Source of the DNA: Marsupella aquatica
Lineage: Eukaryota > Plantae > Marchantiophyta
Direction: 5' to 3'
Assembly (NCBI GenBank): GCA_973895155.1
Contig: OZ316896.1
Span: forward strand, 20,652,152-20,716,151
DNA length: 64,000 bases
The position numbers and the translations under genes were made by a program. Positions within the stretch are counted from its first letter, which is position 1, and each line of letters begins with the position of its first letter. This document shows, piece after piece, positions 1,568-61,956 of the stretch. Under the pieces are notes generated by a model. That model saw only the letters and a list, made by a program, of their open reading frames with translations, did not search any database and had not been told where the DNA came from.

Positions 1568-4500
1568 ATGCAGCAACCGGTCGCCGAAAGCATTGGTGGG
1601 GCTCAGAATGAAATTGAAGATACGAAGCCGACGCTGCTGCCGGCCACCGGCAAAGTTGAGGAAGCCGAGGCCTCTACGGGAAGGCAGCAAATTTTACCGT
1701 CGAACACGATGTCCACAGATTTTGAAGAGCTTTGTACCCTTCTGAAACGCAACCGGCTCGGAGATGTTGACGAGCTGCAGGAGGTTTTGAAAGTTATCGA
1801 GAAGGTGCGTGAATGACAATTTAAATTACAGTCTGATCAGAGTCCGCCTCTCTCTAGATCTCATTTTCCGTTAGTGGTGTGCCAATGACTGTAATGCCCT
1901 CACCCATGGAAAGGGGCATGAGTCAGTCTTGACAGGCACTAACACTCCCTCAATATAGAAAGTATTGAATCGAGAGGGAAGAAATTGTCCATGCGAACAG
2001 CCTCAAAGTAAACTGACCGGTGAAATTCAAAAGTTCTTATGTTTCGCAGAAGAGTCTTCTTTTGCCCAATCGAAGGTCCATGCTACAGAAATGCTCAAAA
2101 ACTGGCCGTGAATGTCTCGGTTGATCTCTGTCCTGAAGAAGAAACCTCCGATGTTGGCTGCCATTTGGACCGCAGGCAATTCAAGAAGCGAACGAGGAAG
2201 CGGAGTCGACAAAAGCAAACAAGAAGTCGTCGAAGAAAAAGTGGATGAAGGAGGAAGCAAGCTGAAGAAAAAAGTGAATGAAGAAGGAAGCAAGCTGATG
2301 AGCAAAGTGATAATTGAAAGTACCAACGATACAGACAAAGTCGACAAAGCCATCAAAGGAGACAGCAAACGGCTGTACAAAGTGACTGGCATCGTGGACT
2401 ATGCAGAGGAAATACTGCAAAAATTCAGTGAAATCGGCTATAAGCCGACCTCGGTAATTACTGTCTTTGGGTTCTTGATTTTGTTTTCTCTCCCTCTGAG
2501 TTTCAGGTTTAGATCACAATGCCTGGTGTATGAGATGATAGATCATTTGAAGCCTGGACTAGAAATCATGGATTATCTGCCTGTGGAAATGCTCAAAGCA
2601 TCCCTCACTCCTTGTTCAGCCAATAGATCGTCAACACAGATCACTGTTCACAGGAATGACTCTGGCATCAATTCACAGCATTTCATGTACCCCCAGAGGA
2701 AGCTCCCTGGCTCTCCAAAGCTAGAATTCTGGCATCCAGTCAACAGGAGCTCTCCAGCCACTAACTATATGTGTTCTGGAATGACAGACTTCTCGAAACA
2801 TGGCAAGTGAATCATATACTCTACTACAACAATGTCTGAGAGGAATTGGAAAGGTGCACTATGCTGCTGTAGCGCTTTCAATGGTTGCATATGTTTTAGA
2901 GCGAGTAAATTTGGTCAGCGACAATTCTGGAAAGTGCTTGGCTCTTCTGGAACGCATGTTAGAGCTTGGGAAGTGTATGGTCAAAGCGTATCCATTTCTC
3001 TCAGGAGATGGTGACCTGCTGCAGAAGGTTCTCATAGCGACAATCAAGGGGGTCTCCTTCTGTTGTAAATACACAAAGAGTGGCGCCTTGATAAGGTATC
3101 CGGATATGTGTTAACCCGCTTTTAGAATTAAAGCTCGTGCATTCTAGGGCAAATATTTTCTTGGAAGCGGGATTTTCGCCAAGGTCATTGTGGATTTGTA
3201 TGGATTTAATTGATTCTTCAAGCGAATTCTAATGGTTTTCATTGTTTGTCTTGGATTGCCAGATTTGGCCTTGCAACTGTAAATAAGGAGCAAATTGATG
3301 CTCTCTGTAAGAAACTGAACGAATTATCTGAGCAGTTTACAAATGCAAGTCTGGTAGCTCTTCTGAAGAGCATGGAGAGGACCGAGATGTCTGTTCAAGT
3401 GGTTCAAGTGAGCCAAACGTCTCTCAGTAACCAAGTGACAGAGTGGTCTAAGCAGGTTCCAACACTATTACCAAATACTCCTGTGGCTCCAATGGAGGGT
3501 GAGACGTCTCTTAGCAAGAATATGACACAGTGTGAGTTGCGGGAAAACGCAATAATCAACTCTTTCAAACCGACGTTATGCGTTATATCTTGTGCAGATA
3601 GCTGGGCTCCCTATCGCTCAATTACTTTTTAGTTATCTTGTAGTGTCTGGACTGTACACATTATTTTAGGTGATTTGTTTTCCCATCTAGAGCAACCCCT
3701 CATCATTCTTGTACTAGTGTGTGTCTTGACTTGCCTCTCAACTGTACTTGACTTGAAGAGAAGGTGAATGCTATCTTGGGGTTCTAGATAAAGGTTGGAC
3801 TTAGCAAGTGTGTGTTCTCGTCTTGCAGGGTATGGATTACCAGAGGCGTCTGCCCAAGAGAAAGAATATTCCAATCTTGTGGTAGCAGACAGCTGTTCAG
3901 TCTCTAAATTGGTGAGTGAAGTTGCCAAGAGGATCTCGGTCCTCAAGGGACTTCCTTGCAAACATTGCCAGAATCTCTCTTGTAAAAGCGCGAGATTTCA
4001 TCTGAGACGAGCTCTTTCTCATATTCCATGGTCATTTGACCCATCATTTAATCATCAGTTATGCACTTTTTATGGGCTTTATCAATAGTTACCTTTTTTC
4101 CTTCCCAATTTGAAAAAATCTAGACCACTCCAATTCTTGGAACTGCAGGAGAAAGCAAGGATAGAAAACAAAACTTCTGTGGGAGGTGCTCGCCCTCAAA
4201 ACTTCCAGCGTCTACCCCAGCACATGACTGACATGCACGGTGAAGAAGAAAAAATCCTAAGCAAGCTGGAAAGTGTGACAACACTAGGCTTGGTTGGCAT
4301 GGGAGGACTAGGGAAGACCACGCGAGCAAAGGCGATCTTCAACATTTTGGGGCCCAAGTTTGATTATACTTGCTTTGTTTCAGACGTGAAACTTATCAAA
4401 GGGAGGGAGGATGATGTGAAGGAAGAGTTGTGGAAATGTTTGCATTTCCAAGGTAAGAAGGTTGGAGGAGATCGCAATTTGTCTATCTTGAGGGGTAAAC

Positions 4501-6992
4501 AATTGCTCCTGGCTTTGGATGACGTCTCTGATCGTGATATTAATGTTTTACTTGACTTAGCTGAAGATACAGATCCAGCAAGCCGCTTCATTTGGACGTC
4601 TCGTGAGCATGACATTTTGAAGGACGTGGGCGCAATTCACGAGGTCCATTTCATGGCTGAGAACCATGCTAAATTGTTATTCATGAAGCATGCGTTTCCA
4701 GAGCCAACAATGCTAGATGTGGAGCTGGAAATTCTTGTTGAAGACGTTGTCAGGAAATGCGATGGGCTGCCTCTAGCCCTAGAAGTGGTGGGGAAGTACC
4801 TACGGGGGAAAGAGAAGCACGAGGTCTGGAAAGATACTCTAAGTGTGTTACAGAGGGCAGAAAAAGTGAAAAATTTGAACGAAAGATTATGGACACGGTT
4901 GAGGCTGAGTTTTGACAGCCTTGGAGAGAAGGAGCAGGAGATGTTTTTGGATGCCACAAACTTCTTTTGTGAGAGCTGGGTCTGGACATTGGGTAAAGCC
5001 AAACTGGCATGGAGAGCAGCTTATGGAGAGGTGAGTGAGCTACTGTGGCAAACCTTGGTAGATATGTCTCTTGTCTATGATGTGGGAGAGGATGACCGTA
5101 TCAAGGTGCATGAGCAACTTCGAAGTGTTGGAAGAATGATTGCATCTGAGCCTGAGCACAACGGCAAGTACCAGGTTTGGATGTGCAATAGAAATGGGGA
5201 AGTTGAGTTGCTTGGAACATCAGATGCATCGCATGGAAAGGTATTTAATTAAAACATCTTAGTTTGCAATTCGCATCCATTAGCCAAGATTCCAAGTAAA
5301 AATTTGCAATAGTTTACATTTGAACTGGGTCAGTTTTTGGCAAAGGGTTTGTTGAAGTGGGAATGAGTGCCATGTGTGGCTCTTTTTCTTCTTTTCTTTG
5401 GGGCCCCCAGTCATGTCATGTAAGATGGGTGCAAGCACCTCCATGGAAAAATGCTAACCTAGGCAGCATCTGGGCAGACGTGTTTGGGTGGTTCAATAAA
5501 TCTGAGGAGACACAGAAGGCGAGTTTGTTTCAATTGCTGATCCTCTTGACCCAAAAGTTGCGGTAGTTTTAACCTAAAGGTTCTTTTCATTTGGAATTGC
5601 AGGAAGTTCGTGCCCTGCAGGTCCACCATGAGAATGGGGTTATTCAGGTCCAGAGTTCAAGGATGTGTTTCCAGAATACGAGGAAGTTGCGGTTCCTGGA
5701 AATGAACGACGAGATTCAGATTGTTGGAGCGACGAATGATACATCGCTACCAACCCAGCTTGTCTTGCTGAGCTGTCATGGTCGGGGTCTCTTCAACCCT
5801 GCCCTCCAAAAAGATCTGGTTGTTTTGAAACTATGGGGCATGGAGGACGTGCCGACTTCTATTGGGCAGCTCTCCAAATTACACCATCTTGAAATAAAAT
5901 TGAATGGCGCAAGATGTCATTCCCTACCCAGATCATTCGGGCAACTCAGCGCGTTGCGACACCTTAGATTGGGATCTTGTGAGGGCTTGCAAAGCTTGCC
6001 CGAGTCATTCGGACAACTCAGCGCTTTGCGAGACCTTACATTCCGTGAATGTGCTGATTTGGAAAGCTTGCCTGAGTCCTTCGGGCAACTCAGCGCTTTG
6101 CGATACCTTAAATTCGATTGGTGCAGGTCACTCAGAAGCTTGTGTGAGTCATTTGGACAACTGAGGGCATTAGAGCGCCTTGAATTCGACAGCTGTGATT
6201 CGTTGGGACGCTTGCCTGAATCCTTCGGGCAACTCTCTGCCTTAAACCATCTTCAATTCACATGTTGCGACAGCTTGAAACTCCTCCCTCAATCTTTCGG
6301 ACAAGTCGCCAGCTTAGAATATCTTTCATTTCAGTCCTGCTCAATACAATCTCTGCCCGAATCTTTTGGGCAGCTCTCCGCTCTAACCCGCCTTTTGTTC
6401 TGCGCCTGCCCAATAAAATCTCTCCCCGAATCTTTTGGGCAGCTCTCCGCTCTAACCCGCCTTTTTTTCTCCTTCTGCCCAATAAAATCTCTGCCTGAAA
6501 ATTTTGGACAACTCTCCAGCTTAGAAAGTCTTTCAGTCACCTCCTGCCAGATAGAATCTCTGCCCGAATCTTTTGGGCAGCTCTCCGCCCTAACCTCCCT
6601 TGTATTCGCTGCTTCGCCCTTTGGCCACACATCCTCAAGGACTCGGCCAAACATCTCAACTCTACTAAATCTCCGATATCTGCAATTGTGGGATTATTCT
6701 GTCACGACTATTCCGGGCTGCGTCAGGAGCTTGAAGTCATTGCGCTGTGTAGAGATCATTATGGATGGCAAAACCTATTGTCGACTGGCCCCAATGGTTG
6801 GTGGACAGTCGAAACGTGGAGGTTTCCAATCACCAGGGACTGGAAAACATCTACCAAATTTTCCACGTGCGCGACGGAATTCTTTTACTAATTGAGAAGG
6901 GTCCAGGAATGAATTACTATTCGCAAGACCTTGATGGGTTCTTCCATGCAAATAATCTCAAGACCGACATATCCAAGCTTCTGGACCTTTGA
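1568..6992 (+). CDS. NLR immune receptor: N-terminal extension + MLKL/Cbl-N-like 4-helix domain + NB-ARC + LRR; possibly pseudogenised (apparent frameshifts near 2215 and 6770)
   Basis: GT-AG exons predicted at 1568-1804, 2176-2453, 2788-3095, 3263-3498, 3829-3911, 4149-5240 and 5603-6992, with compatible phases from exon 2 onward. NB-ARC motifs: P-loop GMGGLGKTT (4296), kinase-2 LLLALDDV, RNBS-B SRFIWTSR, CDGLPLAL, RNBS-D EMFLDAT, MHD-equivalent VHE (5106). About 10 LRR units of type LPESFGQLSALxxLxF (5920-6610). Confidence 0.93.
2788..3400 (+). other. NLR N-terminal four-helix-bundle domain (MLKL/MCAfunc/Cbl-N-like CC), exons 3-4
   Basis: Amphipathic helices MASESYTLLQQCLRGIG..AAVALSMVAYVLERV..NSGKCLALLERMLEL..LQKVLIATIKGVSFCCKY..IRFGLATVNKEQIDALCKKLNEL. 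The N-x3-C-x2-L-x2-R pattern is typical of MLKL-like 4HB domains. Confidence 0.6.
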
Positions 6993-33330: not shown

Positions 33331-33338
33331 TGCAAAGA

Positions 33339-33623
33339 ATTCACAACGAGGGGCAAGATCGAGGCACATTAAGGCCTCGATCGTACTAGTCAGGGCAGCG
33401 TTGGGGTTGTTTGGGCGATGCGAGGGTGACATGTAGAGGCTGCCCAGAGAGCTCCGCTGCACCTAAACAACAATGGTCCTGTCCATTGCCTTTCGGCCCT
33501 GTCCCTCGCTGCAGTCCTGTCGCGATCCCCCCGCACCCCGTTGCTTTACGCCCGTCACGCGAAACACCCGTCGATGGGACTGTATTTTGCTGTCGCCCAT
33601 CGGCAACTAAATTGAGCTGTATT
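33339..33623 (+). repeat. Left TIR (285 bp)
   Basis: Reverse complement of 43762-44084 apart from a few substitutions and two insertions in the right copy. Contains the hairpin GATCGAGGC-N8-GCCTCGATC (33357-33382). Confidence 0.95.
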
Positions 33624-33856
33624 CACCTACTCTCTAGTGTATAAGCTTGGGCTACTATTTTGAATTGAGGACTACGCATTCAAACCTGGCAATTCAGGCG
33701 CGATAATGTTTCCAATTAGTAAATGGCGCTCGTTTTTCTGTGAGAGACAACCCAAGGATCAGGATTGTAATGCTTTCCACTACCAATTCAGGGATTGGGC
33801 TACGAGCAAAGTCAAATTCCTAGTTTACAATCACGTTTCACAACTGGGATGCAGAA

Positions 33857-36800
33857 ATGAACTTGCAGGTGTTGAGGTCAATCTTCCCATCGTTTGTGCA
33901 AGGATCCTCCACTTTGAGCACAAAAGCACATTCCCAGGATGTGCATGCAATCAGCAGCACAACGCAGGCGGAGGTATTACAAGTACTGAATGACAATGGG
34001 GAAATTATTGGATTGGGTAGTTTACAGGGTAAGTTCTGTAAAATGGGTTTGGATGACGACGCACAGAATGAAGATGTCAAGAATGGGTGTGACAATCTCC
34101 CGGATAAGGACGATGAAAGAAGGGTGATTTCAATAAGGAATCTTGGAGTCAGAATGATCGGCCCATACCGGACCTAAAGAAGTGCTTCAACGAGAGCAAT
34201 AAATGTGACAAAATTCAATACCCTCCTCCTGGCGAATTTGATGCAAGCGTCTTGCAATGGTTTGGGAGTAGGGCAGACTCTTCATGGATTCCTAAACATA
34301 GGTTGAATGACTTCATTTGGGGAGAAAATATGAGTGATTCCTTCCATACACAGTTTTCAGTGCGAAGGTCCGCTGATCATAAGATTAATGGGGCAAGACC
34401 TCTTGAGAAGAAAGTTATTTGGTATAACTGTTGTTTTGGGCCCGAAGATAAGCAACATTGGAAGAATGTTGTCGGCAGCCACAAAGTTCCACAGAACTTG
34501 AAGTCGAAAGAAGGGGGTGTGTACTTAAAAAAGAAAACGATCTTAGGTAAACACAAAGAAAGTAGTCCCCATGCAAACTCACGTTCTGCTAATTTCTGAC
34601 ATTTTCGTTGCAGAAGTAGCTTCACACGATTCGCGAACAGTGTCTTTGCCATACTCTGTTCATGTTGTGAATGGTACCGAACAAATGCAGTGTATTTGCC
34701 CATATTTTGCATGTTAGGTCCTGCAAATCGCATCTGACGACACGCTTTTCTAACCAATCATATACATGTCAGGGCACAGCATCAAGCGAGGCTGTAGGTG
34801 TAGCTTCACTGTCAGCCATTTTGTACAGCGCAAAGATGCTCTGTTGATAAGATTGTTACATAGGGACCACGAGGACAAACACGGGCAAACATGCCATGGC
34901 TTGAATGATACTTCTGCATATGCTTCTAACTGTCACATAGCTCCACGTATTTTGATGAAACTCAGGGCTAAAATAGACCGATATTTGAGAGCTGGGTTGT
35001 CAGCAAAGGCCATAATCAGAGCACACTTTGACGAGGTTGCTGTGAAATGGCAAAATGAGCATCCGGAGTCGGATGCCGATGTCATCTTTAGTAGAGACAT
35101 GCAGCTGAAACCTAAAGATATATGGACTATTCGGGAAGCAATGCGCAGGAGACAACCCTTTTATACCACTGACGATGCAGCTAGCATTCAAAATTGGGTG
35201 CATCAGAATGACGGGAATGTACTCCTTTACCAGCCACAAATGAAACTCGAGAACCAACCATTCATTCTAGCCTGGTCAACAGATTGGCAAAAAAAGCAAT
35301 TGGCTACGCTGGGACATGACAATGCAGTTGGCTTCGATGCAACATTTGGCACTAACCACTGCGGGGTACAAACTCAGAGTCCCTTACAAAAGTTTGACTT
35401 CCAACTTGTAGACGCGCATTTTTGTTGGCTGAATTTAGACGCTCCTTTTTTTGGCTGAATTTTTATTTCGTGTCATGTTATCATTTGATGTTCATTTCTC
35501 GTATCATTGAGCCTGCGCAGTTCCCCTTCTACACAATTGTTGTGTTCGACAAATTCCAGAATGCGATCCCTGTCGTTTGTGCCATCCTTCAAAGGTATTT
35601 AGCAGTGCATGTTATAGCGGTATTGTCAGCAGTGAAGGGCGTTGCAGACACTACAAGAAAGGAATTGGGCCACCCTGGCCCATGGAAGCCCAATTGCTGG
35701 ATCATCGATGTTGCAGACGAAGAGCAAATCGCCATCAGGTAAATCCAAAGAATGCTTGTTTGCGTGACTATGGACCGGCTGCCTACTTCTCACATGAGGT
35801 ATTCATTTTCAATCTAGCGTATTCTTGCAATTGCACCCTCACATGTACGTGTTAACCTGCATTTGTACAGCAATGTGTTCCCAAATGTGCCGATCACGTT
35901 CTGTAGCTGGCACGTAAGAAGGGCTTGGACCAAGAATATTATCGGGAAGGTGTTATGCCCCTTTGCAAAGGCCCACATTAATGCAGACCTCGGGGCATTG
36001 ATGTACTCTAATGGAATAGGTTTGTTCCTCCATTGATTGTTACGCTCCACTTCAAATCTGAAATTGTGCATGTTGCAATGATTAATTGTCAATTACTAAT
36101 CCGTGTTCATGCAGATCTCACGGCCGAATCTGAGGTCTTTATGGAGAGGTGGAAGGAGACTCAACCTACCTTTGTGGCATACTACAAAAGAGAATGGCAT
36201 GCCAAAGTCAATCGGTGGACTGTAAATTTCAGACAGTTCATACATGCGAATCAAAACACAAATGGAGGAATCAAGAGGTAGCACCACACTCTGAAGGTGG
36301 AACTGAAGGCCGATAAGAGCAACATCAGTGGCAGGTCCATCCCATGGCTCATTGAGAAGCTTAAAGCCATTGAGAATCACTACTGGTGTATGTCCGCCGA
36401 TAAGTTTCAAGGCAGGCTTAGGAATCGGACTGTAGAGCAACACATACACAAATGCATGAACCGAGCCAAGCTCATCCCGGATCATTTTGTCACACTATTT
36501 GAATGTGGGTCAACAAAGTGTGCTTCGGTGAAAAGCATGTCAGAAAAAATTGCTACATTGAAGGAGCACCTGGTTACAGATTGGAACACCGATTCATGCT
36601 CATGTACGTGCGGATATTCAATGAAGGGCAATGCATGCAAGCACCAGGTATTTGCAACTTCATGACTCCTATTTCATAGTCCAGGACAAATTCAGCCTCA
36701 TAATGTTAGCACTAGTGAGGTTGTCGTTCGTAAATTACAGTAACACTTTAGCAGTAGTGAGGCTGTCTCTCGTAAATTACAATACCACAAGTTCATCGTT

Positions 36801-37906
36801 TTTCCACAGATCAAGGTTCTATTGATGACACAAACCATGACAGAATTGGATCTTCTCACCCAGCTTGGTTCAAAGATGAGTACGTTCTGCGGAGGGCTTG
36901 ATGTGCACATGAAGGTGCAAACTGGGGAGTTCCAGTCCATTAACGAACTTGCAAACGTCACGCTTCAATATGATGATGACGAATTGTGGGATGAAGAATC
37001 GCCTGACCATGATTGCCTCCCTATTTCCCCTCCATTGGATGAGTTTGAAAGTGTTTTGAAGAAGGCATATGACACCGTATCTTATAAACCATCCCTTGCA
37101 ACTCAAGCTCTGAAAGAATTGAAGGCGTGGACTGAGTCACTGCTGACTCGGGAAGCGCAGCAGAATGTGGGCAGGCTAGAACCGGATCCAAGTTCATCGG
37201 AAACTTTGCTCCGAAATCCTGAGTCAGATGTGTCAACAATGCGAAAACTTGGTTGGGTGGACAAGCTTATGAGAGGCCCGCAAAAGAGGAAAGGGAACCA
37301 TGATACAGTTGAAGTAAAGAAGCAACTCACTACCTTTACTGCCCCTGAACGACTGGACATTAAGAAGAAGGGAAAAGTGCTTTCCTTCCAGGGAAAATTT
37401 GACAAGCTTGCAGTGGACGCCCTACAAGAATTGCTGAATTCTGTAAAGGAGAACACTTCACCCGACACATCACCAACACAATGTAAGTTTCTATATTATT
37501 GCTTATATAATGGGTCAATTTTGTAAAGTGCAACAATGCTGCCATGGCTGCCATTGTGACCACAACTAATGTTTCCATGTTCATTGTAGGGTGCCTCGGA
37601 ACTCCGACTTTGCAAACCACTTCACGGTCTAAGGCACCGTTCACAGCCTTATCAAAGGACCGTGCAAAGTCCAACACAGATGTTCCTGCACGTCACACAG
37701 GATGCCCAAGGAAGTCGAGGGCTGCCCCAACATATCCACTCAATGCCGTGAAGGACGGATGCTCTCAATCGGGTGTATTGCGTGAACCCCTCACTCAATT
37801 GCAAGCGCAAGTGATTGGCAACATTCACATCGGATCGAGTCAAGCTTGGGCTATGTCACCAAACTTTACTGACCTACTAAATGCATTCTCAGAGGGAGCA
37901 AAATAG
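33857..37906 (+). pseudogene. MULE DDE transposase with SWIM zinc finger (At4g13970/At1g60560-like), inactivated
   Basis: Exons ~33857-34546, 34773-35365, 35521-35738, 35871-36019, 36115-36647, 36810-37482 and 37590-37906. Motifs IQYPPPGEF, WIPKHRLNDFIWGE, YNCCFGPED, KRGCRCSF, H..G..CHG, FDATFGTN (D1), WIIDVADEE (D2), CSWH, SWIM CTCGYSMKGNACKH. Lesions: frameshift ~34116, catalytic E position reads K (AAG 36273), TAG at 36279 in place of W. Confidence 0.92.
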
Positions 37907-38731
37907 AAGAATACTGGCCACACTTCACCAGAAGCATGCAACATTGTTTGTATAACAGATTAGAACATGACAGTTGTGGATATACTTGATGGTGAGAACG
38001 TGCCAATTGCGGTCGTGCCCCCTAGTGATGAAAGATTCGGCACATGTGCCGTCTACCTCATTGTGAAATGGAATGTGAAATGGTAAACAATTACGCGCTC
38101 GTCATGAAGCTGGCCATGTATTTGCGTCTCAATTCTACTTTTGCCAAAAACCCGAGTTCACCCCTGAGCAGGCTTACTCGGAAGGAGTCAATTAAGTATG
38201 TTGCATGAATACTTGTTTCATGACATTTAGGCGTGGACCGTGTTTTGTCTTACTAACCCACAGAAGTACTTCACAATGTGTGAGGGTAATATCCAAACGT
38301 GCTCGTGGGTTCAATTCTAACTTGACGATTTTGTACGTGGTGTAGCATTACAAATAACCAATGCAGTTGAGTGAGTTAATGTAAGTTGAGAGCGTGACCA
38401 TTGCCATTCACAAAGTACAAAAGTGTGCACAATAAACAATTGCCATGAGCCATTCACATAGTACTCACTGTGCACAATAAACAATCAACAATTCCGACGA
38501 AGTCACTATGCTTTACATATATGTGGGGAATTAAATCCAGTAGTTACAATAAGGTACCATCACGAGTGGCATCTGTTACACATTGTCTGCACAAAAATTG
38601 CGCCAATTTATCGTTCAAAGACGGTTTACACGATCAGAAACTGAAGCTATCCATTTCCCAAGGTCATCCATGTTTTTTTCCACAATTGTTGGCTCCTTCG
38701 CAATATACCTGTCTAGACGCTTATTCACGTC

Positions 38732-41700
38732 CTATAAACTCCTATTAAAGGACTCATACATTAGCTGTAGCGGCGACTTAGTGTCTTCACCGTGCAGACC
38801 CAGGTTAAGGTCCACATCAAGTGTACCTTGAAGTACATGAGCCTCTTTAGCATTGTTTGCTGCACCTGCCACTTGAGATTCGATGATGGTGCGGGGACAC
38901 AATGGGAATAAATTAAGAACCTTATCTGCATTCAGAGTATGATTGTTGCCATTGACACAAGGTAGGCTGCTATCTAAACTATGTACAAAAATATTACTAT
39001 CAATTGTGTCCACACAAGCTCCAAATTCACCTTTCTGAGTGTCACTACTGTCAATTGGCGGCTGTGTATCAACACACACTAGATCATCAAAAGGTGTTGC
39101 GTCTTTAAACATTTCTGACATATCCTGCGTTTGCAAAATGTACTGAGGAACTTCTAAAGGGGAAGGTCCACCCAAATTGCACACAAGATCTGCATATAGG
39201 CAATCCCGAGGTGAGTCATTTGAATCACCCACTCCCGGGGGACAAAATCCTTTGTCGTCAAGAAGCACGGGCGCTTTGTCTTGGGACAAAGAGCACAGTC
39301 CCATGACAGCATCGAAGACCTTGCCTTGTTCTTCCTCTAGTGAGATGTCATGCCATTGATAATCTGCCAATGGCTCACGCAAATCCAATGTTTGACTTGT
39401 TCAGCATTGCAAATGTTGGCCAACCCTAAACTTCCATCTGTGTGAATTGACCACACTTGCGGTTGTGTCGCCTTCGATAGAGACCCATTGCTTCCAATAT
39501 CATCTAGGAGGGGAGTTTGATCTTGTGATAGGGTTATTCCTGCAAATGATCCATGTCCAAACAACATTTGCGTTGAAGTAAGATCATGTAAGCTTGTTAA
39601 AGTGGGAGGTGGGTCCTGCGGTTGCACTTCGTCCGATTCCGAGACATAATTGTTTGCTCCATCTTCTGCTGCAAAAACTTCATCATCTGGTGCGAGAGCT
39701 TCTGTGGGATGAAGTTGCTTCGTTTGGTAATACTCTGCTCGCTCGCGCTCCTGCTCATCGAGCGTCTGCAGAAACAATTTTGTTGTAGGGTCGTCCGGGA
39801 GTTGCCACTGAACATCACATTCATCAAAAACAGGAAGACCTTTACAGTGAACAGGTTTGTGAGAAGCGTGTCTCCTTTCTTACATCCACAAAATCATTCA
39901 TGCACACAGGAATGGATGCCGGTTCACCAGAATTTGGCCCCACATTTGTTGTTGTGTGCTGGGATGGCTTCTTCCGTGAAACCAATTTGTTCAATGGGAC
40001 ACATTTCTTTTTCCTCTTGGGTTTTGGCTTTGTTCTCCGCTCCTTAGGCGGAGCACCATCATCTGAAGTGTCAATCCAAACACTATTCATTGCGGCCTGG
40101 ACATGTACAAGCAATAAATAGAAATAAACAACCGATACATTCATTCCATAAACAAGCTGCAATGGCAAACAAAGTTCAAGTGCAAACTAAAAACCACAGC
40201 AGGTACAAACACATACACAAACATGAAACATGCATCGAACTCAAATGAGTTCTAATGTTGTACTTACTTGTTGTTTGGCCTCTGCCTCGCATGAGTGCCA
40301 TGTATGCACTAACCAAATTAGGTAGAGTCGTGGCACAACTATTGGGTTTTGCTTTTTGTTTCCACGCTTGGTACTCTTGCTCTGCCTTGTTCTCATACAC
40401 ACTCCACCCGTGGTTGTTCTCCCACATGATGGCCTCTCGATTCTTTGTAAGCCATGAAATAGCGTGCTGACAAATACTCTTTCTGTGCAGGAGCAATGCA
40501 GTGCTTAAGTGCTCAGAGTCAGTCGGAGTGACTGTGGTATTGAATATTGAGCCAAGGTGACCAATAGAGGATTTTAAGGCATGAAGGTCTTCACTGGCCA
40601 AATGGGAATGAGAACCTTCTTCAATTTCCTGCGACAATTTGTTCGTCCATGAACCAACAGCGAAAGTAGAAGGGCAATAAGAGATTAGACGTAGCAACTT
40701 CTTGAAATTTGTTGTCTTCACAAGGCTGTTCCAAGGATCATAACCAAGACTGGGCATCACGAACTTGACTACAGCAAGGAACAGGCCTTCTTCTCCCACA
40801 ATTGGACGGGGATGTGCGAATTGGTTCTCTTCAAATTTTGTGACCAACCGTTTGTAAATACATGCCCTGCATGTGGCATATCATGTGCATGTCAGTACAC
40901 AATGAATAGTACATTGTGACTTGCATATAGGCATTTAGCTAATTGAATTGCTTGAGTGCAAATTTACCTCATCCTGTACTTGGCTTGACTCCATCTAGCT
41001 CGCATGGAACCCCTGGCTTCATAGTACATGAATTGCAAACAACTTCACCTGGCTGCTTCCTCCTCCTTGCATTGTATTGTTGCCGTCTTTGCTCATCATC
41101 GCTATCTAGGGCATACAGGGATACCAAAGTCCCGGACAAAATTAGACCATGTTGTTTGAACACATGGTTTCCAAAAGTTCTCTCCGTTTTGAAGACTCGG
41201 TTTTTGCAAGGTGCAACCTTGCAGACCACTGCATTGGCATACAATGTGTAATGATCTCCCTCTATTGCAGCGCCATGTTTGGACTTAACTGCTATTGCCT
41301 GCGTTTGAACAGGTAGTGGATAGGATTCAGCATATTGAAAGCAAATGATGCCAAAATTCACTTAGTTCCATTCAATGTTACCCTCACCTTCTGTGCGTTA
41401 ACTCTGAATGTAGTATGTTTTGGAGGTGTTGCATCCTTTGAATCGCTATTGGAAGCTTCATCGGAGCTGTCACTGCCAGAACTAAATACTCTCTTACGGG
41501 GTGCTGCATAATTTCATCGCTATCAGAGCCTTCTTGAGAGCCCGTGGTCATAGACTCCTTTGCAGGCACATTTCTTTGGACCTTCTTAGCTCTTGCGGTT
41601 GGGAGTCTTGACCTCGTAACCCGAACATGCTCTTCAATATGTGCATCCTTTGACATTGTTTGTCTAGTCACCCGTCGAGGAGGTAACTTACCAGATTTTG

Positions 41701-42201
41701 TGGTGGACTTTGGGGGCGGTAAATTTACAGGCACATGACCTGATTGCCTTCTTGGTGCCTCGTTCAATTCATCAGGGTCTGACTCTGTTTCGGGTTCCTT
41801 CAAGGACAAACCCAGTTTCTTTGGCTGCAATGTGCGCCCGGTTGTGGGCGGTTTCGCCCACTGCCCGTCGTCATGACACTGCGAGGGCTCTGTAGCGCCA
41901 TCGTTCCCCTTTAGAGACCTTTGTCGATAGAGTAGAAGCTGCACCGCATGACATGCATCAAATAGTAAGGTCATGCCTCTAAAACACACTTCGTCCGAGA
42001 CTTGAAAGAAAGAACACAAAAAATATAAAATAATGCAGCACAGGCTCTACGACCTTACCCTAATTTGGTTTAAAGCATGCTTCTTATATGTAGACAACAT
42101 ACGGGGCTTCATACAAACAACATAGAACATAATGGGAATCACCTACCATTACCCTAATCTGGCTTAGTAATGCTTAGTACCTGCTTCTTAGTTCTAGCCA
42201 T
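38732..42201 (-). CDS. MULE accessory protein: predicted H3-tail-like N-terminus (MARTKKQ), basic disordered region, C2H2 zinc finger, helical domain, acidic C-terminus; partly decayed
   Basis: Predicted exons 42201-42181, 41938-41498, 41298-40968, 40866-40268, ~40096-39884 and ~39766-38732. C2H2 motif CKVAPCKNRVFKTERTFGNHVFKQH; NLS-like RRTKPKPKRKKK. Several junctions need 1-2 nt frameshifts, so the gene model is approximate. Confidence 0.65.
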
Positions 42202-42587
42202 ATACTTGTGCAAAAATGGCGTATAGCAAACGTTGGTCCTGTTGTAAGTAGACCGATGTGTGTCAGTCTACACGAGGCCCGGTCAAAGATACTGCAATCC
42301 TTATCCTGCGTCACTCACTCATGAAACCAGGTTAGGATTGAACCAAAGATTAGAGCATATGTATTTGTAAATGAAACATGTGCGAGAAATTATGCATGAT
42401 ACATGGACAAGAATGAGTAAGGTGACTTCGAAGACTCAGATGATCAAAAGCGCCTAAACGCAATTCAACGTTGGATTCATTTGCACGCATTAACAACGGC
42501 CTTGTTTACATTGTGGGCAGTCCTAGTAAAGTTGGAAACATTCGTCACACACAAAAGCTGGTACTGCTATACATCTCAGTGGAAACT

Positions 42588-43448
42588 CTAATCTTTGTTG
42601 CCCCGAGAGGAGTACATGTCTAGCGATGCACTGAAAGCATTGGCTAGCCTCTTTACTACGGACACCATGTTTCCGGTGTCCTCTAATTTGTCACTTGCAC
42701 AATCATCATCTACTGCACTAATAGCTTCGGAAGTGGAAGTGTGAGTTGTCGACGATGTGCTTGTCTTATAATGCGATCCTGCCTTGGAATTTGACGCTGG
42801 CGGAGTGATAGGGACAACATTCACAACGATCCTTGGTGGAGTGGTATGAACAATAGCAATCGGGACTGGGGCGGGAGAAGGGACCCTTGATGAGGGGCTC
42901 CATTGGGCACCTCGCCTTGATGTCAACGATGGCTGCCAAACACAACTGTGCTGCAACACACTGTTGTTGGAAATGATGTTGAGTTCTTGAACGTGAACTA
43001 CTCTGCGTTGCAGCCTAAAAGTGACATTGCAGACAGGTAAATCCTTTGTAAAGTCGTGGACTCGCTGGAATTGATCATGGGGTTCCATAGCTGCCAATGT
43101 AGGGGCAGACATGTCCAACAGAGAAGCAGCTGAGTCCCAAATTGAAGCACAAAGTGCAGGCTGCCCAAAATTTGTCTGTAAAGTGTCATCTGACACAATG
43201 ACCTCAAAGCGAAACATATGAACATAGTTACCATTCTCTGCCGAATCATGGAGACAGTGCTTGTGATTCGGCCCATCAATATACACCTTACACATTCCAA
43301 TCCGAGTCCTCTCAGTGCATCCATGATACGTAAATTTCCTTGGGAAAGGATTTCGAGCTACAAAATTGAGGACTCGGACGTGCATTGGGCCCACAATTCG
43401 GGTCTCTACATCGATCACAGCACGGTAGACGTTGCTCAAGGTGACCAT
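42588..43448 (-). CDS. RPA1 (RPA70) C-terminal-like zinc-ribbon OB-fold protein with Ser/Thr/Pro-rich tail
   Basis: Uninterrupted 286-aa ORF from ATG 43448. Pattern YHGC-x8-C-x11-CLH..MFRFEVIVSDDT..ASIWDSAASLLDMSAPTL parallels RPA1 DBD-C (YxAC..C..C..C..RY.l...i.D.Tg...t.F...ae.llG.sA.el). Confidence 0.7.
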   Translation of the reverse strand: MVTLSNVYRAVIDVETRIVGPMHVRVLNFVARNPFPRKFTYHGCTERTRIGMCKVYIDGPNHKHCLHDSAENGNYVHMFRFEVIVSDDTLQTNFGQPALCASIWDSAASLLDMSAPTLAAMEPHDQFQRVHDFTKDLPVCNVTFRLQRRVVHVQELNIISNNSVLQHSCVWQPSLTSRRGAQWSPSSRVPSPAPVPIAIVHTTPPRIVVNVVPITPPASNSKAGSHYKTSTSSTTHTSTSEAISAVDDDCASDKLEDTGNMVSVVKRLANAFSASLDMYSSRGNKD

Positions 43449-43761
43449 TTTTTCTCCCACAACAATGACAGATTGGAATGAGACAACTTGCCTGAATTGG
43501 TCTTAAGCACTGCACCGTGCACGTTCGCCCTGCGCAAACGAAACAACCTTCAGAATTGTGTCGATCAGAATGATTGGCAACAATGTAGCAGGGCTGAACC
43601 CGATTCGATGCAAAGCATAGCTGATCTCCGCCACCCTAAACCCTTCTGTATCGACCCTAAAATGTAAGGCGACAAAGCAGCTGGAATGCCAATCTCATGT
43701 GCAGATACCCTTTGAGGCACATTAAGGCCTCAATGTACGTCGAGTACATTTGATTCATTGC

Positions 43762-44084
43762 AATACAGCTCAATTTAGTTGCCGATGGGCGACAGCAAAA
43801 TACAGTCCCATCGACGGGTGTTTTGCGTGACGGGCGTAAAGCGACGGGGTGCGGGGGATTTGCGACGGGGTGCGGGGGGATCGCGACGGGACTGTGGCAA
43901 GGGACAGGGCCGAAAGGCAATGGACAGGACCATCGTTGTTTAGGTGCAGCGGAGCCCTCTGGGCAGCCTCTACGTGTCACCCTCGCATCGCCCAAACAAC
44001 CCCAACGCTGCCCATCTGCTAACGCTGCCCTGACTAGTACGATCGAGGCCTTAATGTGCCTCGATCTTGCCCCTCGTCGTGAAT
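43762..44084 (-). repeat. Right TIR (323 bp)
   Basis: Matches the left TIR plus a 21-bp duplication (gcgacggggtgcgggggattt) and a 17-bp insertion duplicating aacgctgccc. Confidence 0.95.
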
Positions 44085-44558
44085 TGCAAAGATGCTATGG
44101 TAATACATAACCCATCTGCAGACTGTCAGAACCCTCTCCCAAACGGAGATGAGAATGGTGATCATACTCTCATATTGTCAGCAAAAGCAAAGCTTACTTT
44201 GCTGGCTATATCGCAAACCTGCATGATAACTTAAAAACATATCTTTGTGAAAAACCTCTTTCACAATTGCACCACTTTCTCCCAGGACTGTCTTCCAATT
44301 ACCTGTTAGAGGGAGGGAAAGCCCAAGTTGCGAAGATGACCTTCTACTGATGGGTGGATCATCTTTTGGTTTTGAGGCAACATTGAGGGTTGGGAAACTC
44401 AAAGTTATGGATCATCCAGTCCCTTTTCAGGTGTTTCAAGGGAAATATCAATGCTATTGAGTAGAAATATTTTGTTGAAAAGGATCCAATCCAGGCTTCA
44501 CAATCCTATCTGAGAAAAAATATCTTAACAAGAATCCTATTCGAGCCGGCACTGGTGA

Positions 44559-53400: not shown

Positions 53401-56178
53401 AAATGTACCTGTACTTGGGCTAATCTTAGTGGGAATGATAGGTCTATTTTAGAGGGACATGGAAGAGCAGATGTACCCATGTTCGGCCAACTTTCACAGT
53501 GCCTCCTGCTAAGTTTAGAGCGAACGGGTACACCAGATTTCACACAGATAAGCATACGCCCTTGCTCAGGTAATTTCAGAGGGAATGATAAATCACAACC
53601 CGTGCCTTTACCATGGGCAGAATAATTGCCCTCCATTCTCAATGAGATAGTGGTTTCACTGACAAGTAAGCATGATTGACTCAACTTGCTCAAGATCTGT
53701 TTGCACAAAAATCATATGTCAACCCATGATCCAACAACTTGTAAAGCTCTTTTCTGTATTAAGATAGTAAAAAGGGCGAGGCATATCCAAATTTAATGGA
53801 TCACAGGTCCATCCTGGCTCCAACTCCCCTCCCACAGTCCACACTGGATTGCCACTTTATTTGTTACCTATATTATATTATTATTTCCAACAAAGCAATT
53901 GTAGCAAGGGCCCGCCTCCCAAAAGCAAAATTGATTGGGTCGTTCCATAGAAAAAAGGAAGGACCACAGTCAGTTCCAAATCATTGAGCTACTGTACATA
54001 CAGGCAATAGGGAGTCTCAAACATAGGCTGCCCAAGGGATATATCGTCTAGACCATGGAGTCAAAATGGCTAGGCACCTCTAACCAGGGGCCACAATTGA
54101 CCTCTAACCAGGGCCCACAAATTTTCTCCCGGGAACCTACCCAAATCGTCTGACTGGGGCTGTTAATGCGAAAGGAGATCCCAAGACCCTAGTCAAATTA
54201 GGTCCCATTGGGCAACGCCTGCCCCAAAGTGTGACCACCTTCAAAGTTTCTTTTTGATTGAAAAAAGAAAAAGAAAAAAGCGTCACCACCTCAGAGTTTT
54301 GCTTAGGAAATTCCAGCCCTCCAAGTTTACAATGGCAAAATTTGAGAAGCAGTTATACGTACACACTATTTTTGCGAGCGGTGCTGTCAGAAGTGGTTAC
54401 CCTACTTGAGGGCAAATTCCTATAATATGCAGGTCTACGTTTTTAGCCAACCAGAATAATTCATAGATCTACAGTACCTTTTTCAGCCAAACAATTTCAT
54501 TCTGCAACGTAGCGTATCTGAGCAATATCTATCTTGCGATGTATTAATTTATCGAGGGTCAGTGAAGTACTCATTACCTCACGGACGAACTGTGGATCGT
54601 CGATTGATCTGCAATCCATAAATGAGGGATGTAATTGAAGCGAAGGTACCTGTCGAAAAAGCGATTCGCACAGGGATGGGAAGGGTATGAAAGGCCGTAT
54701 AGTAGCTCGACTGTGAGATGGAGAGGAGACCTTCAGCTCACTAGCCAATGGCAATTTGAGGAGTGGTGGAGTGGAGTGGAGTGGAGAGGGAAGCACTCTA
54801 GACAGATCTACTTTTTTTGTGATGCACCTGCGTATCAATCTTGTGTCCACTCTCGGGGATTGTTGGTGCTTCAATGACTCAATGCTCTGATGAGTGATGA
54901 CACCTTGGGGCTGACGAGGACTCGTGTCTGACTTATCCCTAGCAGAAGCAGCGGGTTCTCAGCTGTGATCATTCATCTTTTTGTTACGTATCAATTGATC
55001 GTTCTGATCATGAGCTCACTCTGCCGGATCATCATCCGCGATCTTGGCTTCTAGCGCGGCACTCACACACTCTCAACCGGGCCTGGGGTGCTGTCTGTAT
55101 AAAGAGTCCACTGTACTGACAAACTCGGCTTCAACTCCTCTCTGAGTCTGACGGTATGTGGAGTGTGGACTTTTGAGCCGATTGATTGCGGCCTGTAAGC
55201 TTTGATATTATTATTTTGCACGCACGCAAATTGAGTTTGAGACTGCGAGGTCTTTGGGAAATTGTTCGCTGGAGGATCTCGGTTCTTAATATAGTTGCGG
55301 GCAGGCTTGCATTGCCTGGCAGGGCGAATTGAGCGAGGCGTGGGTTTGGATCGTAGTAACTGTGGACGCTGTCTTTGTTCTGAGGAGGGCATTGCAGGGG
55401 GACCCAGCTGATTATATTTGGTCTTGTGGATGAGGAAGATGAGGATTTGATGGCGGTGTGGTTTGTCACTGTCGTCGCCCCCATTTGTTTGCCACTGCGA
55501 TTTTTGTTTTGAGATGACGACTTTTTCATCGATGCAGGGGAGACTGACGTTGGAGCCAATCCTGGAAATCGGTGGCGGGGTGACTTGGAAGCCCAAGACT
55601 TGAAGCAAATTGGCGTAGTCTACTAGTTTGGTTTGGTGTGGTCGTTTTTGTTACTAGCGGACGATCCGTCCGCCCAGGAGAGAAAGAGATCTCGTCACTT
55701 GAGGAAGAAGAGACTTGAGCATTCATCATTGGGACAGCTGATATAAGGAGCAATCTAGGGGAGGTTAAGAAGGCTGGGCTCTCGACATTGACAGACGGAT
55801 TGAAATGCTACGAAAATGGCGACGAGCAGCTCCGGCGTTTTCGATTGGGCAGCAGCGAAGGACGCGGCCTCACCTATTCTTTGAGGAGTAGAATGCGCTC
55901 GGATGATGGAACGCTCAAGGAGAGCAGCAGCAGCAGCGAGAGCAGTTGTGGAGGGACGATGCTCACAGCAGCTGTATCGGGGATAGACTTTTCATTGAGG
56001 GAAGTCTCTGTTCATAAGACTTAGTATATATATGTTGTTGCAAGTCAGTGGTAAGTGGTGGACGGAATGGGATCAGGTTGAGTCGCACCACAGTCTTAGG
56101 AAAAATTGACTAGTACAGAAGAAATTCGAATAAAAAGGCAGTGTCGAGGGTGTATTGTAAGTTCGTCCGCAAATATTG

Positions 56179-57108
56179 ATGGCGAGGAGGTGGATTTGTG
56201 CACTGGGAGGGCAGCCAGTGAGGGTGGTGCATGGGGATGGGCAGGTATTATCGCTCATGCCTCCGGTGACAGTGGCGGACATTCTCGTCAACCATCCGCA
56301 CCATTACATCTGCCACATGTGCCCAGAGCTACCCACGAACAAGTCTCCCATGCTCTCCCTGGATTACGACTTGGAGCCAGGCTATCTGTACTTTCTCCTC
56401 CCGCTCCCCCGGCTCTTTCCAACGAGCTCGGCCGGGCCTCCCTCCTGTTGCTGCCGTGCTACCAATCAGGACACGAGCATTGAGGAGGGACACACTACGC
56501 CTTCTAGAGATTCCAACGATCACAAGTTCGGGTTCCCTTCTCCTCTTATAGTCAAAGGAGTGCAGCGCATGATGGACAGGATCGGCTCTCCCATAAGAGC
56601 ACCGAAGAAGGTCTCTCCCGAGCTCTCTCGCTCACCTATGTCTTCTGCAAGAGACGCGACGTCGCCGCTGCTGTCACCAACATATGGATCCATTAAGAGC
56701 AGTAAGCGAAGAGGAGGAATTGCGTTTTTGAGCAGGAGTGGCAGATCGTCAAAGAGCTCCCCGAGTCGGTCGAGGGAGGGCTTTTCGTCTCCCAAAGCTC
56801 ATTCGAAGGGTGGCATGATGAGAGACAGTGGCCGGTGCTTCGTGGAGGATTTGTGCAGCATGAAGTGGAAGCCTCGGCTAGGGTGCATTTCGGAGACCGA
56901 CGCGGTCGTCACGGTATGTGAGGAGCTAAGACTCTGCTTGGATCGCAGAAGGCTCACCTTTGATAGCAGATTGCCCCGCCCCAGCTCACCGTCCAGATTG
57001 GGGGACATTTACAGGCTCTCGGCCAGGTCAGTAATTCAACCTTCATCTCCAGCTGGGATAATGAATTTAGTGCCCCGATCTGGCTCTGTGTGTGTCCCTT
57101 ACGCTTGA
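56179..57108 (+). CDS. DUF4228 (PADRE) domain protein, single coding exon
   Basis: VRVVHGDGQV..PVTVADILVNHPHHYIC..LEPGYLYFLLP, a Ser/Arg-rich middle, and WKPRLGCISE matching the W+PxLxxIxE C-terminal motif. Confidence 0.9.
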   Translation: MARRWICALGGQPVRVVHGDGQVLSLMPPVTVADILVNHPHHYICHMCPELPTNKSPMLSLDYDLEPGYLYFLLPLPRLFPTSSAGPPSCCCRATNQDTSIEEGHTTPSRDSNDHKFGFPSPLIVKGVQRMMDRIGSPIRAPKKVSPELSRSPMSSARDATSPLLSPTYGSIKSSKRRGGIAFLSRSGRSSKSSPSRSREGFSSPKAHSKGGMMRDSGRCFVEDLCSMKWKPRLGCISETDAVVTVCEELRLCLDRRRLTFDSRLPRPSSPSRLGDIYRLSARSVIQPSSPAGIMNLVPRSGSVCVPYA

Positions 57109-60415: not shown

Positions 60416-61956
60416 CTAGACAGTAACTGCACCAGAAGGGGCTTGAGAGGGACTGTTAAGTCTCTGCATTGCTGTTTTGGCATCAGGATATTCTGGACTG
60501 ACGGCCAGAGCTTGCTGGTACGCCACCAACGCATCTTCAATATCTCCAACTCTTTCACAGCAGCTGCCCAACATGACATGTGTTTGAGGGTTAGCTGGGT
60601 GTAGACCGACAGCCTCTTGCAGGTCTTTAAGAACATCCTGCATCCCATCCCTGCTTCCATTCATCTGCTCGAGCGTGAGCTCTACCCTTTGCAGCAAAGT
60701 GTCAGCCCTTTCTTCCTTAGAGAGGCTCTTGGCAAATTCTTTCGACAGGGCTGTATTCAAAACCTTCAGAGCAGCTACAGGTTTTTTAAGCAGCTTTAAT
60801 GCTAGGCTCTTGACAATGAGCGTTGCTGCATCATGGGGATTCAGTTCGATTGCAAGATCTGCTTCAGTGATCGCATTCCCAGCTAAAGATCGAGCTTGAC
60901 TTGCAGACACCTTTTCATTTCGGGCGTTATTCAGAAGCATAGCTGCTTTGACAAAATGGCGGCGTGCCTGTAGCACCAATCAGTCACAAAATGAATCAAT
61001 TCTCAAAGAAATACAAAAGGAAGTACTGACAAACTTCCCCGCTAACATGAAGCGCATCGGTATATCATTGTGGAGTAACAACATCTGACCGTGAAGGCAT
61101 AACCAGGAGCTGGGACGATTTGGTTCGGTAGTGACTTAGCTGTGGAAAGAGGCTCGAAACAACTTGCATAAGACTTAATAAGAAAAATTCTATGAGAAAG
61201 TTACTGGACACCAGAGGATCAAAGAGGAATGTGACACAAATAGAAAAGCCACAACTAGAAAAGCAGGAACCAAGCAAATAGACCACCTAATACCAATTTC
61301 ACCGACACCAATGATTTATGAATATTCAGGGGTGCATCATCTGGCCGAGGTTACAATGATGATTGTGAAGAGTATGTTTTGCGTAAGAGGAGGCAGCTCC
61401 TTTGAAGGTACGCTTCAGTTCCTCAGTGAAGTAGCTGTGAAAAGGGGCTCGGAAGTACATAAAGATTTTGATAGAACATATGTTTTCTGAGAGGATTGTT
61501 AAACCCCAATCAGTAAAGCGGTTTCCACCTTCCAGCAATTAATCAATCTAACAGAGCAAATATCATGAGATGCCGACAAGTGCCATCCTTTCGGGCATCC
61601 TTTAGGGCACCTGGAAAGTAAAAATCCTATCCCTTCTCTTGACTTGCATAAATTTGGCTATTGATACAAACTAAGCACAACATATCACATATCAAACCGA
61701 ATTGGGGGCAAAGCAAAGAACTAGTTAGAACTATCTATATTCCAAGACTCGTCAGCAAGCAAAGCATCTACGCTTCCCCTCCTCAAAAATATGCACAAAT
61801 CATTTCTATCCAACGCGCAAAACGAGCATGCAGTACCTGAGTGAGGCGAGCTCGGCGCCTTCGAAGCCTCGCATGTATACCATTTCCAACAGAGCGAAGC
61901 AGAAGCGCCGCCAGTAGCCCAAGTACTACCAGGGCGTAGGTGAGAAGGTTCTCCAT
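60416..61956 (-). CDS. Signal-anchored tetratricopeptide-repeat (TPR) protein
   Basis: Exon 1 61956-61837 (MENLLTYALVVLGLLAALLLRSVGNGIHARLRRRRARLTQ, CAG|GT) joined in phase 0 to exon 2 60967-60416. TPR motifs AIELNPHDA, AVGLHPANPQTHVMLGSCCERVGDIEDALVAYQQALAVSPEYPDA. Confidence 0.9.

Follow-up and report, generated by a model that had tools for sequence, protein, structure and literature searches.

The window, i.e., the whole 64,000-nt stretch of DNA analyzed here, carries a Mutator-like element (MULE) of 10.7 kb that spans positions 33339–44084, has inverted ends of ~300 bp and is bordered by an 8-bp target duplication. A transposase gene on the (+) strand and an accessory gene on the (−) strand lie within it in convergent orientation, together with a further single-exon open reading frame (ORF) on the (−) strand. 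The features of the element other than the accessory gene are as follows:

33331..33338, no strand: left target-site duplication, 8 bp and perfect (a 9-bp reading has one mismatch)
33339..33623, (+) strand: left terminal inverted repeat; the arms are 94–98% complementary to 43762–44085
34117..37906, ends approximate, (+) strand: multi-exon gene for a Mutator-type transposase
42588..43445, (−) strand: single-exon ORF of 285 aa, with a probable RPA70 C-terminal-type OB fold and a low-complexity tail
43762..44084, (−) strand: right terminal inverted repeat; immediately beyond 44084, the flanks of other insertions differ
44085..44092, no strand: right target-site duplication

The original prediction had placed the gene of interest in a transposon, and this setting was confirmed, the host element being a Mutator-like transposon. 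Specifically, the terminal inverted repeats measure ~285 to 320 bp, which is the long-repeat structure of MULEs, and the target-site duplication is of the size (8–11 bp) that MULEs generate. Behind 44084, the loose ends of 3 contigs (X1) and 7 contigs (X4) run into differing flanks, and there are many diverged contigs, i.e., the element is dispersed in multiple copies, as MULEs are. The transposase contains a candidate SWIM finger (Pfam E = 0.0016, below the cut-off) and what we take to be MuDR-type DDE/CxxH-type motifs, read by eye against a consensus; no single transposase exon matched PF10551 in Pfam. One transposase intron holds a 42-nt tandem repeat (36706–36788, (+) strand). Elsewhere in the window, we observed a disease-resistance-type gene with NB-ARC and LRR domains (4089–6895, (+) strand), a PADRE-domain gene (56161–57108, (+) strand) and a TPR-repeat exon (60416–60979, (−) strand).

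The accessory gene is read from the (−) strand and comprises the following parts, given in the order of transcription:

42202..42305, (−) strand: 5′UTR-like non-coding part of the exon that holds the micro-exon coding part; among copies it shows substitutions without codon bias and frame-breaking indels
42181..42201, (−) strand: coding part of the micro-exon, MARTKKQ, where the protein is predicted to begin; its ARTK is identical to residues 1–4 of histone H3
41939..42180, (−) strand: predicted 242-nt intron, GT...TGCAG, with a branch-like motif at −20
41388..41938, (−) strand: exon B, a basic low-complexity linker of ~183 aa
40968..41298, (−) strand: exon C, a C-x4-C-x12-H-x4-H zinc finger and a conserved basic motif
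40268..40866, (−) strand: exon D, a conserved helical domain whose family is unassigned
39887..40096, 3′ end approximate, (−) strand: exon E, a basic run resembling a classical nuclear localization signal (NLS)
38735..39879, boundaries approximate, (−) strand: distal acidic exons, placed by tblastn to P0006, P0007, P0009 and P0010

The downstream exons are anchored by homology. With the zinc-finger exon as the query, a search of 1.84 billion representatives returned four relatives, including an unnamed protein of Calypogeia fissa, and further searches added five more C. fissa proteins (up to 700 aa). The six C. fissa proteins (CAM6122973.1, CAM6090148.1, CAM6097530.1, CAM6111318.1, CAM6083013.1 and CAM6103696.1) are 34–65% identical to exons C–G in the aligned parts and confirm the order of these exons; since they sit on different contigs, they represent a repeated family. 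The distal acidic exons matched the Calypogeia proteins P0006, P0007, P0009 and P0010 by tblastn, and exon D is 34% identical to P0002 over 213 aa (pairwise E = 6e-40). The C2H2 finger of the original prediction proved genuine and lies in exon C; in a P0002 model that is otherwise poor, it folds as beta-beta-alpha at a pLDDT of 75–81. The domain of exon D may be helical, as modeled with low confidence. Exon B consists of 78% disorder-promoting residues, with four aromatic ones. The N-terminal part of the gene is absent from all six Calypogeia proteins, and no P0002 homologues of 701–2000 aa were found. Pfam searches assigned no family to the six proteins and no known fold was found for them, two models of low confidence matched nothing in fold searches, an ESM Atlas search with P0002 yielded nothing above 0.79, and scans of metagenome, genome and viral contigs returned no relatives of the locus. 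The accessory gene is likely one not described before, belonging to a multi-copy Mutator-like transposon family of probable liverwort origin.

Upstream of the accessory gene, the 285-aa ORF probably encodes an RPA70 C-terminal OB fold, which we regard as a lead. Its PF08646 match has an E-value of 0.18 over profile positions 15–117, and its ESM Atlas feature score of 0.92, from 181 shared features, is of low recognition value. The model of this ORF (pLDDT 43) was too poor for fold searches, and no sequence homologues were found. The depth of diverged contigs is high over this ORF, a measure that we do not take as copy number. RPA-like cargo is known from Helitrons rather than MULEs.

The micro-exon itself was the core of the original prediction, which had the protein start with MARTKKQ. 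All of its literal elements are present in the sequence: the ATG at 42201, MARTKKQ on the (−) strand at 42201–42181 and a GT donor at 42180, with zero ATGs in 42305–42202, i.e., none upstream in the exon. The upstream acceptor proposed at 42306 is preceded by a branch-like motif, but its AG is lost in one diverged copy type (loose ends read by eye), so the 5′ edge of the exon is uncertain. The proposed phase-0 splice to 41938 likewise stands as a prediction, with a TGCAG acceptor at 41939 that is in frame with the long ORF. Of the 24 AG sites in 42170–41800, the one that combines phase 0 with a YTRAY branch-like motif 20 nt upstream, and with no AG in between, is the TGCAG that ends at 41939; the rival acceptors at 42000, 41978 and 41908 have no such motif within 50 nt. 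The MARTK-coding string occurs once in the window, and when the window was shuffled 100 times with dinucleotides preserved, 5 shuffles contained one; the string alone is thus weak, and the conservation data described below carry the case. The start and donor contexts account for about 8 of the 21 nt. When a degenerate pattern of the micro-exon was used as a query, a MARTKKQV-type string turned up at six metagenome loci, all bacterial-looking; none is similar to the element, and we treated them as chance matches. The MARTKKQ exon is probably the true start exon of the accessory gene.

For conservation, DNA contigs of four runs (two studies, two organism labels) were aligned to 42150–42320. Among the matches listed, the 21 coding bases were spanned by 17 of 23 contig records (32 aligned). 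The original prediction had staked itself on ARTK being conserved among copies, and at the DNA level it was: the matches listed contain no amino-acid change in the seven codons and a single nucleotide change, at 42187, which is synonymous and falls in the Lys4 codon. Upstream, the 104 bases of 42202–42305 show 16 substitutions at 15 places in the same matches, along with indels that break the frame (−1, +5 and −1), and the intron shows a 10-nt loss. Some counted differences remained unplaced; they probably lie at the ends of pieces, the smallest listed distance to a piece end being 9. Three diverged copy types kept the heptapeptide. The first differs at ~12 of 91 upstream bases (~13%), the second differs at ~9 of 45 (~20%) and also has an insertion (in part, this rests on a loose end inspected by eye), and the third has an intron that is unlike the window copy after donor position +8.

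The statistics of this pattern are modest. At the upstream rate, the probability of no replacement is 0.13 for the first of these types and 0.04 for the second (0.19 and 0.07, respectively, without the donor codon), and under uniform divergence the coding part would fall within an exact 30-nt block in 9–13% of cases. A pooled Fisher test on variable places (1 of 21 versus 15 of 91) was not significant (p = 0.15), and the copy types are related, i.e., not independent. The constraint at the micro-exon appears local, because 41860–41998 (139 nt, the acceptor and the start of exon B) fails to align in one type in all four runs. The comparison covers alignable copies, and copies with a changed micro-exon and unlike flanks may escape alignment; since, in addition, exon C attracts more of the distant copies than exon A does, the conservation holds within this subfamily only. 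Within its subfamily, then, the micro-exon behaves, in these aligned copies, like a constrained start exon. An apparent hub of conserved contig ends at 42172/42201 was explained by a 10-nt deletion (42162–42171) combined with the 31-letter word length. One diverged type, as read by eye, appears to have an out-of-frame ATG 22 nt upstream and to carry the exon in tandem duplicate, two differences remaining unplaced. In the diverged copy of X1 record 5 (on 42172–42217 and 42174–42197), the micro-exon and its donor occur twice, ~94 nt apart, an arrangement that resembles the intronic tandem repeats described for VANC genes.

The window copy is a dead member of its family, so the MARTK question concerns the family and not this copy. 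Exon B has lost 1 nt at 41509/41510 relative to contigs in three of the four runs, and exon C changes frame at ~41028 relative to P0001 and P0002. These two frameshifts rule out the full protein that had been reconstructed from this copy. The transposase has an in-frame stop at 36279–36281, and contigs of all four runs show variants at 36273 and 36280, the former likely being the position of the catalytic Glu, at which the window copy differs from other copies. Neither the two accessory-gene frameshifts nor the transposase stop had been noticed in the original prediction.

We next consider what the conserved start may mean. It begins like the H3 tail, ARTK being H3 residues 1–4 (PMC6028506), and it fits the N-terminal rule for H3 mimics, M-Z-R-x-K, as given in the available text of PMC8166343, with a residue 2 that permits Met cleavage, Arg2 and Lys4. 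According to the same text, 48 human proteins out of 20,996 fit a loose form of the rule, which means that starts of this kind are no great rarity. Beyond residue 4 the similarity to H3 breaks off, the next residue being Lys where H3 has Gln. In the mechanism that we envisage, the micro-exon would be spliced to exon B and the initiator Met would be removed, as the permissive Ala2 should allow, leaving a free A1-R2-T3-K4. Exon B would act as a long, flexible, disordered tether that links this N terminus to the C2H2 finger and the helical domain, which would place the protein on DNA. The free ARTK could then compete with or recruit a factor that reads or erases H3K4 marks (e.g., a PHD/WD40 reader or a demethylase of the LSD1/LDL type), with the outcome that the element would stay transcribed. 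In Arabidopsis, removal of H3K4me1 by LDL2 is described as a silencing step in the available text of PMC11204290, which makes a demethylase decoy plausible. Given the NLS-like run in exon E, nuclear import does not require the N terminus to act as an NLS.

As judged from sequence, a mimic function of ARTK is plausible, and the short motif makes it directly testable. Whether the conserved ARTK start mimics the H3 tail and thereby engages an H3K4-binding factor of the host at copies of the element itself strikes us as close to an even question, leaning slightly toward no. The more specific proposal, i.e., that the free ARTK from a dedicated 7-codon exon is a working H3-tail decoy and an anti-silencing route independent of VANC, is more tentative and would more probably fail than hold. 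If true, it would add transposons to the viruses and host proteins in which histone mimicry is known and, to judge from the literature searched, would be the first transposon-encoded histone mimic; none was described among the papers listed in that literature, which lay mostly outside subscription journals. In the available text of a 2026 preprint on transposon regulatory proteins (10.64898/2026.08.24.746577), the words "mimic" and "H3K4" do not occur. A histone mimic in this element would also supply a concrete molecular mechanism in a liverwort lineage whose transposon chromatin differs and is rich in H3K27me3: in Marchantia, many transposons are marked with H3K27me3, as reported in the available part of 10.1101/827881. 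Most of what is known about the ways in which accessory proteins of transposons counteract silencing by the host comes from VANC of dicots and from TnpA-type proteins.

A somewhat unlikely alternative to the mimic is that the start exon is genuine but resembles H3 by chance, its sequence being set by start and donor contexts plus a purine-rich splicing enhancer, or simply by the need for a generic basic N terminus. Such a reading would account for DNA that is near-invariant also at silent sites and at donor positions +1 to +8, for a similarity that spans four residues only and for the modest conservation statistics, and it agrees with the appearance of the string in shuffled sequence and at six unrelated bacterial-looking loci. 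It fits less well with the sole listed change, which is silent and falls in the Lys4 codon within the purine run, with the poor conservation of the adjoining coding region and with an N terminus that is dispensable as an NLS.

The remaining alternatives are less probable. The micro-exon could be a small upstream ORF, of 15 aa without splicing or of 16 aa when joined to the T-rich acceptor at 42000, with the long protein beginning at the ATG at 41974. No acceptor has a stronger pyrimidine tract than that at 42000, and this ATG is in frame with exon B. However, 42000 is an AAG site without a branch-like motif, whereas 41939 is a TGCAG site and has a branch motif resembling that of the exon D acceptor, which is supported by homology, and the invariant phase-0 donor matches 41939; we therefore consider an upstream ORF improbable. 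If acceptor 42000 were used, the stop of the 16-codon peptide would overlap the ATG (41974–41971, (−) strand) that is in frame with exon B. Slightly less probable again is that a mimic exists but serves integration targeting or centromere-like loading, as a captured H3/CENH3-type start, rather than anti-silencing. A plant CENH3 also starts with MARTK before departing from H3 (PMC10264360, available text), exon B is a long basic tail, and the element carries another probable captured domain in the RPA-like ORF. Against this stand the gene-containing character of the window and the fact that neither a histone fold nor a match to histones turned up, be it in exon B or in other parts: Pfam gave no histone match in the exons scanned, and the PDB gave none for the first 143 aa of exon B. 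Finally, the 21 nt could belong to an internal coding exon that uses a different frame, or reaches further upstream, and is joined to the RPA-like ORF. In the window copy, a second frame indeed stays open across the entire exon and would suit the phase-2 acceptor at 41978, but the upstream silent/replacement counts (2/14, 5/11 and 4/12) show no silent-site bias in any frame, each of the three indels listed disrupts the frame, and the one change among the 21 nt would be a replacement in that second frame, which makes this reading very improbable.

Returning to the mimic as an anti-silencing factor, we compared it with known systems. The original prediction had likened it to VANC, the anti-silencing protein found in VANDAL (MuDR) elements of Arabidopsis. 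The likeness survives as an analogy: both are accessory genes of Mutator-type elements that combine conserved domains with fast-evolving regions, and both would, by this analogy, keep their own family active. The protein may act in a comparable way without being a VANC. DUF1985/DUF287 domains and densely spaced target motifs characterize VANC (PMC5735166), which is described as dicot-specific and MAIN-derived (PMC13547354), whereas the present gene has a C2H2 finger and likely a liverwort host; the available texts of both sources describe no histone mimic for VANC. No DUF1985/DUF287 match was found by Pfam for the exons of the window (E ≤ 0.1 or 1) or for P0001, P0002, P0003, P0006 and P0010 (E ≤ 1), and no dense target-motif array was seen, the top 8-mer occurring 7 times and the top 9-mers 4 times.

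The parallel to influenza NS1, also drawn in the original prediction, holds in part. The H3N2 NS1 motif ARSK is a parasite's four-residue H3K4-like motif at a disordered end, and this mimic binds Paf1 and Chd1, but it is C-terminal and lacks a free H3-like amino terminus (PMC6028506, available text). N-terminal host mimics such as VRK1 are therefore the closer parallel. In the available text of PMC8166343, the human mimics VRK1, BCL11B and MEF2C carry M-Z-R-x-K at the very N terminus, and several human mimics are zinc-finger transcription factors; the present protein has the exact ARTK. Unlike these human mimics, which are host proteins bound in vitro, it is predicted, transposon-encoded and begins in a 7-codon exon. 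One plant CENH3 shares the MARTK start and the subsequent divergence from H3 into a basic tail (PMC10264360, available text), but what follows the tail in the present protein is a zinc finger and a helical domain in place of a histone fold.

Two minor observations concern the ends of the element. A 21-nt hairpin-forming motif of the terminal repeats (33361–33381 and 44042–44062) recurs at 43714–43734, just inside the right end, and is a possible candidate for a binding site of the transposase or the accessory protein. The CpG observed/expected ratio is 0.95–1.02 in the terminal repeats (33339–33623 and 43762–44084) versus 0.56–0.64 in the element body, and this lack of CpG depletion hints that the ends have long been unmethylated.
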